A DNA stretch of 11,051 nt from Naegleria gruberi (Eukaryota), in assembly GCA_000004985.1 (NCBI GenBank), contig GG739004.1. One strand, 5' to 3'. Below, piece by piece: positions 1 through 11,051 of the stretch. Made by a program: the position numbers and the translations under genes. Numbering within the stretch: the stretch's first letter is position 1; every line of letters starts with the position of its first letter. The notes below the pieces were generated by a model. That model did no database searches. It was not told the DNA's origin and was given only the letters and a program-made list of their open reading frames with translations.

Positions 1-857
1 ATCCCTTGTAACCAAATTATTCTTTTGTTGTTTAGTTGATTTGTGTCCATACCACGAGCAATAACTCTCGCATGACAACAAAATGGAGTGAGAAATGATA
101 AAATGAAGAGAACTAAGGTACAAATTACGGTTCCAAGAAGGGAATAATAACTGGTAAAATCGTCTTGAATGTTTTGGAAAGCTAATGGAAGATCCTTTCC
201 CTGAATGCTGCAAGATTGAGGATTGACTACTGTTTTTATCAATGAAAACCATCCATCTTCACAAAAGCAAACACTCTCACCTTGATATCCTTCTCCACAA
301 TCCATTTGGAGAAATTTTACATCGTCTTCTGAATGAATTTCTGAATATTTGCAAGAGTTTGACTCATCAATGTACTCGTCTGTTCCACAATTACTCTTTG
401 TCTCACAAACTTGTTTCAAACAATTGAAAATAAGATCTCCTGAGCAATTGGGTTTACAAAATGAATTAATAAGAATGGTGTCAGTTGGACAATTATATGG
501 AAGTCTGGAAGCTTTTGAATAATCGTGATGGGTTGAAGTAAACATATCATATGATGTTGGATCTAGATTTATCACTTGTTCATAAAAAGTAACCTGGCAA
601 TTTCTAACTGATGCTTTATAGTAGAAATTAAATCTATAATAGGAAAACGGTCCTATATTGAAAGAAAAAGATTGGAGTGAACATCCAGAAAGAAATAACT
701 CATCTGAAACAGATCTGTGGTTATTGTTGAAAACCTCCATGAAAGAATAACCTGTACTGTTAAACGTTGTTGAGCCCATCTCCACAACGTAAAGAGAGCA
801 AAAACCTGAGTGAATCTTAAAACCGATTACCAGAAGTGCCAACAACAAATCTAACAT
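1..857 (-). CDS. Cys-rich type-I membrane protein with EGF-like motif. The 5' end is complete (ATG is the reverse complement of 855-857); the 3' end runs past the window start.
   Basis: I translated the minus strand by hand from the ATG at 857 to position 1: 285 codons with no stop, ending ...NNKRIIWLQG. The ORF track omits it because it has no in-window stop. The N-terminus MLDLLLALLVIGFKIHSGFCS is hydrophobic and signal-peptide-like. The ectodomain is Cys-rich with NxS/T sites and one EGF-like signature, CGEGYQGESVCFCEDGWF. A single TM-like segment (YYSLLGTVICTLVLFILSFLTPFCC) is followed by basic residues (HARVIARG). The start context is A-rich (ccaaaaaaaaATG). At roughly one-third G+C, 285 open codons are very unlikely by chance. 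Confidence 0.55.
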   Translation of the reverse strand, partial: MLDLLLALLVIGFKIHSGFCSLYVVEMGSTTFNSTGYSFMEVFNNNHRSVSDELFLSGCSLQSFSFNIGPFSYYRFNFYYKASVRNCQVTFYEQVINLDPTSYDMFTSTHHDYSKASRLPYNCPTDTILINSFCKPNCSGDLIFNCLKQVCETKSNCGTDEYIDESNSCKYSEIHSEDDVKFLQMDCGEGYQGESVCFCEDGWFSLIKTVVNPQSCSIQGKDLPLAFQNIQDDFTSYYSLLGTVICTLVLFILSFLTPFCCHARVIARGMDTNQLNNKRIIWLQG

Positions 858-889
858 TTTTTTTTGGTTTTTTTTGGTAATTTCCTGAT
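858..889. repeat. 32-nt spacer between two same-strand (minus) CDSs, made of two oligo-T runs (tttttttttggtttttttt on the plus strand)
   Basis: Read directly. The homeodomain CDS stop is at 890-892 and the next CDS begins at 857. The spacer is almost entirely A/T homopolymer. Confidence 0.8.
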
Positions 890-1405
890 TTATTCCTTGA
901 TTATTTCTCCTTGTTGGAAAATACATTCCTTTGGAACTGTATCACCTACAGTTTTTTTCCAAGCCCTTCCTCTTGTATTGATAAACCAATTGGTTATTTG
1001 ATTTTTTGTTAAACCAGTCTGTTCCATCAACATTTTCTTTTCAGAACTTGTTGGGAAGGGGTGTGCTAAGTGGTCCAAAAACCAGTTGTTAAGAACATCT
1101 GTTGGTTTTCCTCCAAGGCTTAATTTTTGAGATTCAATAACACCAAGAGATTTGATTAATTCTTTTTCTCCTTCCTCTACAGCCTTTTCTTTATAGGTTT
1201 GGATCAGTAGGGTTGCCTTGGGGTTTAGGATGGATTTTAAAATTAATTCATCAAGATCAAACATAAGCTGGGACAAATGACCTTCAATTTCTTCCTTCCT
1301 ACTGATTGCTCTTTGGAATTTTTCTGATGTTGATGATATTTTCTCGTACCTGCTCTTAGTTTGTTCTCTAAAATCTTGAATCGAGGAAAACAACATTGCC
1401 GACAT
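890..1405 (-). CDS. TALE-class homeodomain transcription factor, 171 aa (CUP9/TOS8/MEIS/KNOX-like). The homeodomain is C-terminal.
   Basis: Complete ORF. The C-terminal region [51 protein letters not shown] carries the TALE signature: a three-residue loop extension (PFP) between helices 1 and 2, and the WFxNxR recognition helix. The best resemblance is to fungal Cup9/Tos8-type 'TGLTKxQxxNWFINxRRR'. The start context is A-rich (aaaaaaaATGtcg). Confidence 0.8.
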
Positions 1406-1514
1406 TTTTTTATTTTTAATAAAGGAAGATTCCTTAATTGCTTGCTGTAAAACAGTTCCAAGTGCCAGACTGATGGTTGACTTGACCAGTCAAAAAAAAT
1501 ATTTAAACATCATA
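1406..1514. promoter_or_regulatory. Divergent (bidirectional) promoter region, about 109 bp, between the homeodomain gene (minus) and the Rac-like GTPase gene (plus)
   Basis: Two start codons face away from each other, at 1405 (minus) and 1515 (plus). The region is A/T-rich and contains a short palindrome, tgacCAgtca. No specific factor site is claimed. Confidence 0.3.
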
Positions 1515-2641: not shown

Positions 2642-2717
2642 AAAGCCTTGTCAAATCCATCAGGTGGTCACAATGTAGTAAAAAGAGCGTAGTAAAAAGT
2701 TAACCTGATGAATTAAT

Positions 2718-3554
2718 TTATTCATCTTGAGTGCTTTCTTCTGTTTCTTCTTTTGGTTCCTTTGCCTCTTCATCTTCACCATACTGAATAGTCATATCAA
2801 CATAGGAGAGGATGTATTCTATCGATTCTTCATCAGTAATATCCAATTCAAGAAATCCAACCATGTTGAAGTTGTCAATTAATGAAACAATTGCATGATT
2901 GAGTTTGGAGAAAGATGAATTTCTCTTGTGGGGATTGGTTTCTTTCTCTAAAGCGTAGAGAAGCTCAGTTTTGTCAGGAACTTTTAGCTTTTCTAAAATG
3001 TTTGATCTTTCCTTATTTCCTTTTAGAGTATCACATTTTGTGAAAATATTGACATGAGGAGTCTCGAATTGAATCATTGCAGAAAGGGCCTGGGTAATAC
3101 CACTGATATATTTTGTAACATCTTCTATAAATTGTACGTCCATACAATAGACACAACAAACCCTATATCCTCTTCGTTCCAACTCCTTTACAAATAACTG
3201 CATGATTGGTACATGACTGTAAAGTTCAATTTGACCTGGACAATCAAAGATTAAATAGTCATTCTCATAATCACTCAATTCTTCCGAGAACCAATCTTCT
3301 AAATTCTGCATTAAATATTCCATACAGTAAACTAGACCTCCGTTAGGACCAAGTTGAAACTCCTCCATGACATCCTCCAATGTTACCAAGTCACGAATAT
3401 CAAATGCACATTGATATTTAAACTCCTCAGCCGCAGGATCTAAATTTACAACATGAATAATTCTCTTTGTATTGTTACCATGTTCTTGAATTTGGCAATA
3501 AGTCGATTTTCCGGAACCAGCAGGTCCAATCACTAGTTGTGCGTGTTTCCCCAT
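2718..3554 (-). CDS. GPN3: GPN-loop GTPase 3 (GPN3/Fet5 family), complete, 278 aa, no intron
   Basis: The N-terminus MGKHAQLVIGPAGSGKSTYC is the hallmark GPN3 start (P-loop GPAGSGKST). The C-tail is acidic (EDEEAKEPKEETEESTQDE). The start context is A-rich (caaaaaaaATGggg) and the stop is TAA. Confidence 0.9.
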   Translation of the reverse strand: MGKHAQLVIGPAGSGKSTYCQIQEHGNNTKRIIHVVNLDPAAEEFKYQCAFDIRDLVTLEDVMEEFQLGPNGGLVYCMEYLMQNLEDWFSEELSDYENDYLIFDCPGQIELYSHVPIMQLFVKELERRGYRVCCVYCMDVQFIEDVTKYISGITQALSAMIQFETPHVNIFTKCDTLKGNKERSNILEKLKVPDKTELLYALEKETNPHKRNSSFSKLNHAIVSLIDNFNMVGFLELDITDEESIEYILSYVDMTIQYGEDEEAKEPKEETEESTQDE

Positions 3555-4459: not shown

Positions 4460-4507
4460 TCTTTTTTTTAATTTAGGAATTGGTTTTGTTTTGTTCTTTT
4501 AACAAAA
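4460..4507. promoter_or_regulatory. 48-nt spacer between divergently transcribed CDSs (308-aa minus and 162-aa plus); a minimal bidirectional promoter/5'UTR region
   Basis: Start codons at 4459 (minus) and 4508 (plus). The spacer is T/A-rich: ctttttttaatttaggaattggttttgttttgttcttttaacaaaa. Confidence 0.3.
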
Positions 4508-5048: not shown

Positions 5049-8000
5049 NNNNNNNNNNNNNNNNNNNNNNNNNNNNNNNNNNNNNNNNNNNNNNNNNNNN
5101 NNNNNNNNNNNNNNNNNNNNNNNNNNNNNNNNNNNNNNNNNNNNNNNNNNNNNNNNNNNNNNNNNNNNNNNNNNNNNNNNNNNNNNNNNNNNNNNNNNNN
5201 NNNNNNNNNNNNNNNNNNNNNNNNNNNNNNNNNNNNNNNNNNNNNNNNNNNNNNNNNNNNNNNNNNNNNNNNNNNNNNNNNNNNNNNNNNNNNNNNNNNN
5301 NNNNNNNNNNNNNNNNNNNNNNNNNNNNNNNNNNNNNNNNNNNNNNNNNNNNNNNNNNNNNNNNNNNNNNNNNNNNNNNNNNNNNNNNNNNNNNNNNNNN
5401 NNNNNNNNNNNNNNNNNNNNNNNNNNNNNNNNNNNNNNNNNNNNNNNNNNNNNNNNNNNNNNNNNNNNNNNNNNNNNNNNNNNNNNNNNNNNNNNNNNNN
5501 NNNNNNNNNNNNNNNNNNNNNNNNNNNNNNNNNNNNNNNNNNNNNNNNNNNNNNNNNNNNNNNNNNNNNNNNNNNNNNNNNNNNNNNNNNNNNNNNNNNN
5601 NNNNNNNNNNNNNNNNNNNNNNNNNNNNNNNNNNNNNNNNNNNNNNNNNNNNNNNNNNNNNNNNNNNNNNNNNNNNNNNNNNNNNNNNNNNNNNNNNNNN
5701 NNNNNNNNNNNNNNNNNNNNNNNNNNNNNNNNNNNNNNNNNNNNNNNNNNNNNNNNNNNNNNNNNNNNNNNNNNNNNNNNNNNNNNNNNNNNNNNNNNNN
5801 NNNNNNNNNNNNNNNNNNNNNNNNNNNNNNNNNNNNNNNNNNNNNNNNNNNNNNNNNNNNNNNNNNNNNNNNNNNNNNNNNNNNNNNNNNNNNNNNNNNN
5901 NNNNNNNNNNNNNNNNNNNNNNNNNNNNNNNNNNNNNNNNNNNNNNNNNNNNNNNNNNNNNNNNNNNNNNNNNNNNNNNNNNNNNNNNNNNNNNNNNNNN
6001 NNNNNNNNNNNNNNNNNNNNNNNNNNNNNNNNNNNNNNNNNNNNNNNNNNNNNNNNNNNNNNNNNNNNNNNNNNNNNNNNNNNNNNNNNNNNNNNNNNNN
6101 NNNNNNNNNNNNNNNNNNNNNNNNNNNNNNNNNNNNNNNNNNNNNNNNNNNNNNNNNNNNNNNNNNNNNNNNNNNNNNNNNNNNNNNNNNNNNNNNNNNN
6201 NNNNNNNNNNNNNNNNNNNNNNNNNNNNNNNNNNNNNNNNNNNNNNNNNNNNNNNNNNNNNNNNNNNNNNNNNNNNNNNNNNNNNNNNNNNNNNNNNNNN
6301 NNNNNNNNNNNNNNNNNNNNNNNNNNNNNNNNNNNNNNNNNNNNNNNNNNNNNNNNNNNNNNNNNNNNNNNNNNNNNNNNNNNNNNNNNNNNNNNNNNNN
6401 NNNNNNNNNNNNNNNNNNNNNNNNNNNNNNNNNNNNNNNNNNNNNNNNNNNNNNNNNNNNNNNNNNNNNNNNNNNNNNNNNNNNNNNNNNNNNNNNNNNN
6501 NNNNNNNNNNNNNNNNNNNNNNNNNNNNNNNNNNNNNNNNNNNNNNNNNNNNNNNNNNNNNNNNNNNNNNNNNNNNNNNNNNNNNNNNNNNNNNNNNNNN
6601 NNNNNNNNNNNNNNNNNNNNNNNNNNNNNNNNNNNNNNNNNNNNNNNNNNNNNNNNNNNNNNNNNNNNNNNNNNNNNNNNNNNNNNNNNNNNNNNNNNNN
6701 NNNNNNNNNNNNNNNNNNNNNNNNNNNNNNNNNNNNNNNNNNNNNNNNNNNNNNNNNNNNNNNNNNNNNNNNNNNNNNNNNNNNNNNNNNNNNNNNNNNN
6801 NNNNNNNNNNNNNNNNNNNNNNNNNNNNNNNNNNNNNNNNNNNNNNNNNNNNNNNNNNNNNNNNNNNNNNNNNNNNNNNNNNNNNNNNNNNNNNNNNNNN
6901 NNNNNNNNNNNNNNNNNNNNNNNNNNNNNNNNNNNNNNNNNNNNNNNNNNNNNNNNNNNNNNNNNNNNNNNNNNNNNNNNNNNNNNNNNNNNNNNNNNNN
7001 NNNNNNNNNNNNNNNNNNNNNNNNNNNNNNNNNNNNNNNNNNNNNNNNNNNNNNNNNNNNNNNNNNNNNNNNNNNNNNNNNNNNNNNNNNNNNNNNNNNN
7101 NNNNNNNNNNNNNNNNNNNNNNNNNNNNNNNNNNNNNNNNNNNNNNNNNNNNNNNNNNNNNNNNNNNNNNNNNNNNNNNNNNNNNNNNNNNNNNNNNNNN
7201 NNNNNNNNNNNNNNNNNNNNNNNNNNNNNNNNNNNNNNNNNNNNNNNNNNNNNNNNNNNNNNNNNNNNNNNNNNNNNNNNNNNNNNNNNNNNNNNNNNNN
7301 NNNNNNNNNNNNNNNNNNNNNNNNNNNNNNNNNNNNNNNNNNNNNNNNNNNNNNNNNNNNNNNNNNNNNNNNNNNNNNNNNNNNNNNNNNNNNNNNNNNN
7401 NNNNNNNNNNNNNNNNNNNNNNNNNNNNNNNNNNNNNNNNNNNNNNNNNNNNNNNNNNNNNNNNNNNNNNNNNNNNNNNNNNNNNNNNNNNNNNNNNNNN
7501 NNNNNNNNNNNNNNNNNNNNNNNNNNNNNNNNNNNNNNNNNNNNNNNNNNNNNNNNNNNNNNNNNNNNNNNNNNNNNNNNNNNNNNNNNNNNNNNNNNNN
7601 NNNNNNNNNNNNNNNNNNNNNNNNNNNNNNNNNNNNNNNNNNNNNNNNNNNNNNNNNNNNNNNNNNNNNNNNNNNNNNNNNNNNNNNNNNNNNNNNNNNN
7701 NNNNNNNNNNNNNNNNNNNNNNNNNNNNNNNNNNNNNNNNNNNNNNNNNNNNNNNNNNNNNNNNNNNNNNNNNNNNNNNNNNNNNNNNNNNNNNNNNNNN
7801 NNNNNNNNNNNNNNNNNNNNNNNNNNNNNNNNNNNNNNNNNNNNNNNNNNNNNNNNNNNNNNNNNNNNNNNNNNNNNNNNNNNNNNNNNNNNNNNNNNNN
7901 NNNNNNNNNNNNNNNNNNNNNNNNNNNNNNNNNNNNNNNNNNNNNNNNNNNNNNNNNNNNNNNNNNNNNNNNNNNNNNNNNNNNNNNNNNNNNNNNNNNN

Positions 8001-8938
8001 NNNNNNNNNNNNNNNNNNNNNNNNNNNNNNNNNNNNNNNNNNNNNNNNNNNNNNNNNNNNNNNNNNNNNNNNNNNNNNNNNNNNNNNNNNNNNNNNNNNN
8101 NNNNNNNNNNNNNNNNNNNNNNNNNNNNNNNNNNNNNNNNNNNNNNNNNNNNNNNNNNNNNNNNNNNNNNNNNNNNNNNNNNNNNNNNNNNNNNNNNNNN
8201 NNNNNNNNNNNNNNNNNNNNNNNNNNNNNNNNNNNNNNNNNNNNNNNNNNNNNNNNNNNNNNNNNNNNNNNNNNNNNNNNNNNNNNNNNNNNNNNNNNNN
8301 NNNNNNNNNNNNNNNNNNNNNNNNNNNNNNNNNNNNNNNNNNNNNNNNNNNNNNNNNNNNNNNNNNNNNNNNNNNNNNNNNNNNNNNNNNNNNNNNNNNN
8401 NNNNNNNNNNNNNNNNNNNNNNNNNNNNNNNNNNNNNNNNNNNNNNNNNNNNNNNNNNNNNNNNNNNNNNNNNNNNNNNNNNNNNNNNNNNNNNNNNNNN
8501 NNNNNNNNNNNNNNNNNNNNNNNNNNNNNNNNNNNNNNNNNNNNNNNNNNNNNNNNNNNNNNNNNNNNNNNNNNNNNNNNNNNNNNNNNNNNNNNNNNNN
8601 NNNNNNNNNNNNNNNNNNNNNNNNNNNNNNNNNNNNNNNNNNNNNNNNNNNNNNNNNNNNNNNNNNNNNNNNNNNNNNNNNNNNNNNNNNNNNNNNNNNN
8701 NNNNNNNNNNNNNNNNNNNNNNNNNNNNNNNNNNNNNNNNNNNNNNNNNNNNNNNNNNNNNNNNNNNNNNNNNNNNNNNNNNNNNNNNNNNNNNNNNNNN
8801 NNNNNNNNNNNNNNNNNNNNNNNNNNNNNNNNNNNNNNNNNNNNNNNNNNNNNNNNNNNNNNNNNNNNNNNNNNNNNNNNNNNNNNNNNNNNNNNNNNNN
8901 NNNNNNNNNNNNNNNNNNNNNNNNNNNNNNNNNNNNNN
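5049..8938. other. Assembly gap (3890 N)
   Basis: A literal run of n. ORFs 4932..8954, 5030..8950, 5032..9033 and 5039..8959, and the X-portion of 5016..9926, are artefacts. Confidence 1.
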
Positions 8939-9896: not shown

Positions 9897-10483
9897 TTTT
9901 TGTTGTTGTTTTTTGTTGTTATTCAAGAATCCCGTTAGCGTATGATAAAGAGGAGCTTTCTTCGCCTTTTCTTACAAAGTTTTTAGGGCATTGTCGTCAT
10001 CATTGAGAAACTTCATTTTTGCTTGTTTCACGAAATTATGCACCTATCAAAGCATTAGGATATTGTTTTTTTATCATTAGAATTAAGAGTTAATTTCGCC
10101 ATTTATCTTGTTTTTCAAAACTTAAAACATGGTTATGTTGTCATGCAACTTTTAAATCAAAGATATTAACTTCGTCAAAAGAATAAGAAAAAAAATGAAA
10201 ACCAATCTCCATTGCTGTGGTTGGTAGTGGTTTGAGTGCATTGGAGCACAATATTTCACTGTCAGAAGTGAACAATTCAAGGAGCAAGTAAATCAATGGA
10301 TAGATCAGAAACAAGTAATTTTATGGGATGATCCTATTATATCATTAGAGAATGACATGACAATTAGGCCAAAATCCGCCCAACTTGGCTGTTTGAGCGA
10401 TAATAATAACTCTAACGACGTGATTTCAAGATATATTTCAACAAGTAATGGTATGAATGCTCTTTGTAAATCAATGAAATCAG

Positions 10484-10552
10484 AGATTTTAGACACAGCC
10501 AAAATTTCAAATGTTTATGTCAATTTTGAAATTTTGGCTGTGTCTAAAATCT
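10484..10552. repeat. Perfect inverted repeat: 28-bp arms (10484-10511 and 10525-10552) around a 13-nt loop. It would form a hairpin in either strand.
   Basis: The left arm agattttagacacagccaaaatttcaaa is exactly the reverse complement of the right arm tttgaaattttggctgtgtctaaaatct, checked base by base. The loop is tgtttatgtcaat. Confidence 0.9.
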
Positions 10553-10814
10553 TTTATGAAACTATTAGAACGTTTCTAAAACAAGAATGGGTCTGAAATT
10601 ATTACACAAGCTGCTGATCATGTCAATGTTCATAGATGGAGATATTCTATTCCATTTTCAACAAATTCAACCTACTCTGGAAGTGAATGGTATAATGATG
10701 GAATTGGTGATTGGACTAACAGGGAAGAGTCGAAGGAGCTTACTTAAGTGGAGTTGAAATGGCTGATTTCTTAATTTCAAAATTGTAGTTTATTTCAGTT
10801 TGTTTTTTAATAAT

Positions 10815-11051
10815 TTAATTCTTCTTCAATAAAGCTTCAACACTTTCACGGAAAACTCTAGTATGGACATCAACATCTTCTTCAGTATGGTTAACACAAA
10901 TTAAAGCCATGTTGTGGAATGGTGTCATCAAAATACCACGATTAAGGGCATACAAGTGCATATATTGGTCCAATTCAAAGTCACAAACAGCAGCAGCTTC
11001 TCCACCATTGACTGGTTCGGTTGGTCTAAACCAATATTCAGTACGACAACC
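10815..11051 (-). CDS. C-terminal fragment (78 aa plus stop) of a PLP-dependent class-III aminotransferase-like protein (glutamate-1-semialdehyde aminomutase-like C-terminus). The 5' part lies beyond the window end.
   Basis: Reading the minus strand from 11051 gives GCRTEYWFRPTEPVNGGEAAAVCDFELDQYMHLYALNRGILMTPFHNMALICVNHTEEDVDVHTRVFRESVEALLKKN*, with no stop for 78 codons and a TAA stop that is the reverse complement of 10815-10817. The '...HTEEDVD...' segment resembles the conserved C-terminal region of class-III aminotransferases/GSA-aminomutases. The ORF track omits it because it has no in-window start. Confidence 0.45.
   Translation of the reverse strand, partial: GCRTEYWFRPTEPVNGGEAAAVCDFELDQYMHLYALNRGILMTPFHNMALICVNHTEEDVDVHTRVFRESVEALLKKN

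Follow-up and report, generated by a model that had tools for sequence, protein, structure and literature searches.

Two genes 32 nucleotides apart in Naegleria gruberi, with a poly(A) signal over the stop codon of the upstream homeobox gene

Gene content of the window

Naegleria gruberi is a free-living heterolobosean amoeboflagellate that has both mitochondria and spliceosomal introns. The stretch of DNA analysed in this work, hereafter the window, is a complete small scaffold of N. gruberi NEG-M, 11,051 bp in length. Its genes and ORFs include the following:

1-857, minus strand: gene for a Cys-rich type I membrane protein, 285 codons, the scaffold ending a few residues before the stop
890-1405, minus strand: TALE-class homeobox gene, single exon, 171 aa, stop codon TAA at 892-890
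start at 1515, end at 2642-2678, plus strand: Rac/Rho-type GTPase gene with introns, its middle falling in a run of N
2718-3554, minus strand: GPN3 (GPN-loop GTPase 3), 278 aa
3533-4459, minus strand: AFK-like (actin-fragmin-kinase-like) ORF, matching Pfam Act-Frag_cataly with E = 3.6e-12
10196-10790, plus strand: FAD/NAD-binding oxidoreductase-like gene, apparently frameshifted
right end of the window, minus strand: class-III aminotransferase-like gene, stop region at 10814-10819

Along the window the strands follow the order -,-,+,(gap),-,-,+,(gap),-,+,-, with same-strand runs of at most two genes. The gaps are two runs of N, at 1993-2641 (649 nt) and 5049-8938 (3,890 nt). A 3' portion of the Rac-like gene is lost in them, as is the C-terminal portion of succinyl-CoA ligase beta. 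The protein encoded by the GPN3 ORF is identical to EFC35847.1 / XP_002668591.1 of N. gruberi (NAEGRDRAFT_44893). As a second copy of GPN3 (279 aa, >90% identical) is found on a 782-kb scaffold, the small scaffold may correspond to an allelic or duplicated region. Rfam and tRNA scans over the whole window gave no matches.

The homeobox ORF matches Pfam Homeobox_KN with an E value of 1.4e-18 (66.9 bits, for a cutoff of 24). In a full HMMER scan of 1.84 billion representatives, we found three relatives that align with it end to end, all of 169-172 aa: P0004, encoded on a contig that we call L001 (49% identity), and KAL9651226.1 and KAL9648317.1 of Willaertia magna. The alignment retains an N-terminal motif, the TALE loop HPFP and WFINxRGR, and the termini agree within a few residues. 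The homeodomain residues W48, F49, N51 and R53 are intact together with the HPFP loop, and NWFINTRGR is kept throughout the four-member family, which places it in the TALE class. No related locus was found among metagenome contigs.

As for the membrane-protein ORF, it contains 17 Cys residues and is hydrophobic at residues 1-20 and about 237-263 (Kyte-Doolittle windows >1.8). The combination of a predicted signal sequence at M1, as judged from Kyte-Doolittle hydropathy, and a C-terminal transmembrane segment is that of a secreted or type I membrane protein. The ORF has no family match in Pfam. Exact and word-based searches of protein collections in which the GPN3 protein of this scaffold is present returned no match for the homeobox, membrane-protein and AFK-like ORFs; the three genes are therefore probably unannotated in N. 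gruberi.

The spacer and the stop codon of the homeobox gene

Between the TAA of the homeobox gene (892-890) and the ATG of the membrane-protein gene (857-855), the spacer covers positions 889-858 of the minus strand and is exactly 32 nt long, ATCAGGAAATTACCAAAAAAAACCAAAAAAAA. The coordinates of this same-strand gap, first noted in a sequence-only reading of the window, are confirmed. That reading described the spacer as essentially all oligo-T/A; this applies to its 3' 20 nt, a perfect tandem duplication of CCAAAAAAAA with no further copies in the window, but not to its first 12 nt, which are of mixed sequence. The junction comprises the following features, listed in the direction of transcription:

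924-926, minus strand: nearest ATG upstream of the membrane-protein ATG, in frame with the membrane-protein ORF and inside the homeobox CDS
922-925, minus strand: UGUA motif, 28 nt upstream of the hexamer
889-894, minus strand: AATAAA poly(A) signal containing the homeobox stop TAA 892-890 (gAA-TAA-Atc), a 'dual-use' stop
868-877, minus strand: first CCAAAAAAAA copy, 12-21 nt past the end of the hexamer, predicted cleavage/polyadenylation region
858-867, minus strand: second CCAAAAAAAA copy, an A-rich leader abutting the downstream ATG, candidate transcription start region
839-854, minus strand: U/GU-rich stretch TTAGATTTGTTGTTGG within the opening codons of the membrane-protein gene

The polyadenylation of N. 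gruberi mRNAs has been described by direct-RNA nanopore sequencing. AAUAAA is the top poly(A) signal, located about 15-20 nt upstream of cleavage, with UGUA enriched upstream and U-rich sequence downstream, and the median 3'UTR is 39 nt (PMC11529991). Between 11 and 13% of the stops overlap AAUAAA, and the transcripts concerned have a median 3'UTR of 22 nt (PMC11529991). The homeobox stop belongs to this category, in which AAUAAA or AUUAAA overlaps the stop codon. Cleavage 15-20 nt past the hexamer would fall at about 879-869, which corresponds to TTACC and then the first A8 run. The segment from 889 to 868 ends with that run and has exactly 22 nt, which equals the published median for dual-use stops. 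CA dinucleotides are found 14 and 24 nt after the hexamer. The spacer had been considered too short for a 3'UTR and a poly(A) site. This does not hold in a species whose dual-use stops are followed by 3'UTRs with a median length of 22 nt: with the stop within AATAAA, and with the short 3'UTRs of N. gruberi, the spacer is long enough for both. The UGUA motif is not conserved in L001 and is a weak candidate for an auxiliary element. The U/GU-rich stretch at 839-854 may act as a downstream element in the cleavage of the homeobox mRNA.

Overlaps between hexamers and stops are found elsewhere in the window. AATAAA occurs six times on the minus strand in 6.5 kb, and three of the six are at or just past the stops of minus-strand genes. 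GPN3 ends with GAA-TAA-A (AATAAA at 2717-2722, minus strand), and the aminotransferase-like gene ends with AAT-TAA-A (ATTAAA at 10814-10819, minus strand), with an additional AATAAA 23 nt downstream. We counted spacers, stops and starts over four small loci, namely the window and the related loci L001, L002 and L003. In this sample, which was selected around one gene family and includes paralogous segments, the A[AT]TAAA register applies to 9 of 18 TAA stops, compared with 11.3% of all TAA trinucleotides (P = 5.6e-5). As for the AFK-like ORF, no AWTAAA was seen within 60 nt after its stop, and the end of its mRNA is therefore probably inside GPN3. The A7 leader and ATG of GPN3 in turn sit inside the AFK-like ORF.

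Conservation of the layout in relatives

The contig L001, from the Logan assembly of SRR29240419, is syntenic with the window: it harbours the Rac GTPase, homeobox and membrane-protein genes. Its Rac gene keeps introns, indicating that the contig represents genomic DNA. The gene pair has the same layout there:

1050-1568 of L001: homeobox gene, followed by a 35-nt spacer
1604-2530 of L001: gene for a 308-aa membrane protein, with the stop of a convergent neighbour 3 nt away

The AATAAA of L001 ends 1 nt ahead of the stop of the homeobox gene, and both W. magna relatives end with GAA-TAA-A, i.e. AATAAA over the stop, such that the hexamer is present at the homeobox stop in all four members of the family. 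The ATG of the L001 membrane-protein gene is preceded by CCAAAAAAAAC. The 35-nt spacer also contains a further ATG, out of frame and beginning 20 nt ahead of the main one. With a longer leader this additional ATG would open an upstream ORF, which favours a transcription start in the last ~17 nt, at CCA8. The two membrane proteins align end to end, M1 to M1 (BLASTP E = 1e-12). The L001 protein starts with MSSYSYCIVWFLVFSSVVCAQT, a clear signal peptide, and is hydrophobic at residues 4-23 and about 252-289 (Kyte-Doolittle windows >1.8).

Short distances between genes are common in these loci. Over the window and the three related loci, the junction is of at most 50 nt for 10 of 22 CDS-CDS pairs and for 6 of 12 tail-to-head pairs. 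For one of the W. magna homeobox genes, the next gene, 41 nt away, encodes a prefoldin, and 8 nt lie between the prefoldin gene and the gene that comes after it. In the window, the 22-nt overlap between the end of the AFK-like ORF and the start of GPN3 (3533-3554) and the 48-nt divergent spacer at 4460-4507, both pointed out in the sequence-only reading, are correct as ORF coordinates.

The N. gruberi genome has a size of 41 Mb. It is ~58% coding, with about 16,000 genes of a mean length of 1,677 bp (PMC9928731). Combining these gene numbers and lengths with the genome size, we derived a mean spacing of ~0.9 kb. The 32-nt spacer is far below this mean, yet it is not unusual in the lineage. Small as the sample is, it shows a spacer of this size to be typical of the lineage and stable over considerable divergence.

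Some junctions are tighter still. Convergent stops are 3 nt and 5 nt apart at L001 2528-2536 and L002 8319-8325, respectively, and the tail-to-head spacers from the prefoldin gene to the next gene (L002 8579-8593 and L003 5047-5056) measure 8 nt in one locus and 13 nt in the other. In these 8- and 13-nt W. magna pairs, the first downstream AWUAAA is within the first codons of the next gene, leaving aside the one that overlaps the stop in L003.

A-runs before start codons

An A-rich run is found just 5' of every placeable start codon in the window, and 6 of its 9 strand-specific A-runs of at least 7 nt are directly upstream of a start. The signature is general over the four loci, which include paralogous segments: 13 of 25 starts have an A-run of at least 7 nt within the 30 nt upstream, compared with a background of 1.9% of all 30-nt windows (binomial P = 1.6e-16) or 3.3% of the windows located 5' of any ATG. 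The second CCA8 copy is thus a normal start context for ATG 857. The CA(n) signature before starts may mark initiators, and so strong a signature of A-runs may be of use in defining the start sites and initiators of the lineage. Our literature search on 5'UTR lengths, start sites, promoters and overlapping transcripts in Naegleria found nothing specific, and we identified no promoter motif for the membrane-protein gene at the locus.

A probable pair of separate transcription units

The gene pair most probably consists of two independent monocistronic N. gruberi genes packed tail to head, and the best reading is that the two transcription units are separate and abut or slightly overlap. The homeobox mRNA would be cleaved and polyadenylated about 11-22 nt past the stop, in or just before the first CCAAAAAAAA copy; cleavage so close to the stop would be possible because the TAA is embedded in AAUAAA. 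That such an overlap acts as a poly(A) signal and yields a 3'UTR of ~22 nt comes from the literature on this species (PMC11529991). The membrane-protein mRNA would begin at, or shortly upstream of, the second CCA8 copy, and the protein would be translated from ATG 857. Its leader would then be very short and made of the A-rich second CCAAAAAAAA copy, or at most begin in the last 66 nt before the ATG. These 66 nt (923-858) contain no ATG, so that any transcription start within them leaves AUG-857 as the first AUG. With such a short leader, the core promoter of the membrane-protein gene would have to be located in the terminal portion of the homeobox CDS and in the 3'UTR. The precise 3' end assigned here to the homeobox mRNA, the start assigned to the membrane-protein mRNA and the placement of its promoter are inferred.

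The sequence-only reading had also objected that the spacer is too short for an independent promoter. We concur on this point, as no independent promoter is confined to the spacer, and elements of the downstream transcription unit are required to overlap with the upstream gene. GPN3, with an ATG that sits within the AFK-like ORF, and the divergent spacer of 48 nt hint in the same direction. With so little sequence downstream of the poly(A) site, some read-through past it is plausible.

Alternative explanations

It is tempting to speculate that CA(n) serves as a bifunctional 'punctuation' in Naegleria and Willaertia. CCAAAAAAAA may be both the cleavage/poly(A) site of the upstream gene and an initiator for the downstream one, the latter with a poly(A)-like leader and a 5'UTR of at most 10 nt. 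Complete units would then abut within about 30 nt without overlap, and the tandem copies would serve one role each. Alternatively, the conserved pair might be truly bicistronic, which would make it the first operon-like gene pair in Heterolobosea. That one or the other of these two possibilities applies appears rather unlikely to us.

In its general form, the bicistronic or read-through reading holds that Pol II starting from the homeobox promoter covers both ORFs, and that the membrane protein is produced by reinitiation, leaky scanning or processing. Polycistronic transcription had been put forward on first inspection of the locus. It would account for a spacer too short for a promoter and for the linkage and order of the two genes, which are conserved in L001, and there is precedent in Euglenozoa, fellow members of Discoba, which transcribe polycistronically (bioRxiv 10.64898/2026.07.29.740908). 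We nevertheless consider it unlikely, first because a canonical AATAAA stands between the two ORFs, at the same position at the upstream stop in every family member. Translation of the second cistron would need reinitiation after a 171-codon ORF, a process that is inefficient in eukaryotes. We know of no spliced-leader trans-splicing in Heterolobosea, and our literature search on Naegleria found no report of it.

Gene order also argues against polycistrony. Heterolobosea have ~2 genes per directon, with no heavy tail, and their intra-directon spacers are no shorter than the inter-directon ones (bioRxiv 10.64898/2026.07.29.740908). This amounts to a monocistronic pattern. Directional clusters are lacking in these organisms, the strands alternate in the window, and the pair is not part of a long same-strand array such as would characterize an operon. 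Furthermore, the downstream neighbours of the two W. magna homeobox paralogs differ, and the pairing is therefore not an obligatory functional unit.

Another reading supposes that one or both ORFs are not expressed, as pseudogenes or degenerate copies on a small, gap-rich and possibly allelic scaffold, in which case their spacing would have no functional meaning. The scaffold also bears a Rac-like gene without a terminal CAAX box and the apparently frameshifted oxidoreductase-like gene at 10196-10790, and neither the homeobox nor the membrane-protein ORF was matched in the protein collections. Degeneration of this pair is nonetheless unlikely. Both ORFs are intact, the diagnostic homeodomain residues and the HPFP loop are retained, and three species agree in protein length and termini. 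By our own estimate, the chance of a 285-codon open frame at 34% GC is roughly 1e-9, and the same arrangement of the two genes is found in L001.

The least probable of these readings is that the downstream start has been mis-assigned, the true one being either Met27, with a longer 5'UTR, or the in-frame ATG 926-924 within the homeobox CDS. Both codons are in the frame of the membrane-protein ORF: Met27 (VVEMGST) had been suggested as an internal start in the sequence-only reading, and initiation at ATG 926 would add 23 residues to the protein. A protein that has a Cys-rich ectodomain and, after it, a C-terminal transmembrane segment requires a hydrophobic N-terminal segment, which is what M1 opens into. 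The M1 of the ortholog likewise opens into a signal peptide, the two proteins align from M1 to M1, and both M1 ATGs come after CCA8. In L001 the position aligned with Met27 holds a T, so that this methionine is not conserved, and the suggestion of an internal start is rejected. As for the 23-residue extension, it is hydrophilic and has no counterpart in L001, in which the sole upstream ATG is out of frame. ATG 857, in contrast, carries the typical A8 context.

Two other candidates were rejected. Fusion of the homeobox and membrane-protein ORFs through an intron or a frameshift is contradicted by the position of the stop before the homopolymer runs, by the lack of a GT donor near the stop and by L001, in which each of the two proteins is complete by itself; and an assembly artefact is contradicted by the recurrence of the arrangement in an independent assembly of another species.

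Comparison with known systems

The closest parallel is found in the species itself. The dual-use stops of N. gruberi (Genome Res 2024, PMC11529991) share with the homeobox stop the location of the stop within AAUAAA, and the sequence here allows a 22-nt 3'UTR; the UGUA and the U/GU-rich stretch of the locus are possible counterparts of the auxiliary elements. In contrast with the mapped 3' ends of that work, the one described here is predicted, and the next ATG is only 10 nt past the predicted poly(A) site. We found no individual report of this locus in the main text of PMC11529991. The locus adds one case to the dual-use stops and ultrashort 3'UTRs already published for N. gruberi; what is new here is only this apparently unannotated conserved gene pair and the CA(n) signature before starts.

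Ultrashort UTRs and a poly(A) signal at or over the stop are also found in Giardia lamblia and Entamoeba histolytica. In these organisms, 5'UTRs are very short and A/T-rich elements are located close to the start. The Giardia signal, WGURAA, is located 8-9 nt before cleavage, whereas the Naegleria AAUAAA is 15-20 nt before it, and Naegleria also differs in its free-living habit, in having mitochondria and in the 41-Mb size of its genome.

Microsporidia and nucleomorphs similarly have spacers of tens of bases, with the signals of one gene within its neighbour. Many of their mRNAs span several genes, and termination signals have been lost. Here, in contrast, a canonical and conserved poly(A) signal separates the genes, and the genome is only ~58% coding. 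The locus had been likened to microsporidia and considered puzzling, given that it keeps introns and a TCA enzyme. The locus is indeed very compact, but the puzzle dissolves with the host being a free-living heterolobosean.

Euglenozoa (trypanosomatids, diplonemids and euglenids) are, like Naegleria, members of Discoba, and they too have same-strand neighbours with short spacers. Their units are long directional arrays processed with spliced-leader trans-splicing, whereas directons in Heterolobosea comprise ~2 genes and strands alternate in the window.

The significance of the locus beyond annotation is slight. It is a conserved example of gene spacing of about 30 nt in a eukaryote that is free-living and whose introns and mitochondria are ordinary, achieved by merging the poly(A) signal with the stop codon and by keeping the A-rich leaders very short. 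For Heterolobosea, near-zero spacers should be permitted in gene finding and in UTR models, and very short spacers in Naegleria are not to be taken as evidence for operons.

Other observations on the neighbouring genes

The Rac-like protein of the window ends with ...KPCQIHQVVTM*, while its L001 ortholog (274-300, minus strand) ends with ...KKPCQIL*, a normal CAAX box. Without a terminal CAAX box, the window copy would escape prenylation, which points to degeneration of this copy or allele, or else to an error in the sequence. In the oxidoreductase-like gene, the ATG at 10196 is one base out of frame relative to the Rossmann motif (KPISIAVVGSGLSAL), and later segments are in other frames. The gene could be a pseudogene, contain unrecognised short introns or be affected by homopolymer errors.

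In Willaertia magna, a gene for a 102-aa protein (L002 5647-5955, plus strand) is located 136 nt 3' of the homeobox gene. The protein starts with MNLLFSSEEQFISKL, which resembles the N-terminal motif M..SMLF.SEQDF of the homeobox family, and the gene may be a tandem partial duplicate without the homeodomain.

The divergent spacer between the Rac and homeobox genes is of 109 nt in the window and 102 nt in L001. The two spacers share an exact 11-mer, GTCAACCATCA, located at 1471-1481 (minus strand) in the window and at about 978-988 (plus strand) in L001. An AAGGAAT-TTC block is also common to both, and these shared blocks are candidate bidirectional promoter elements.
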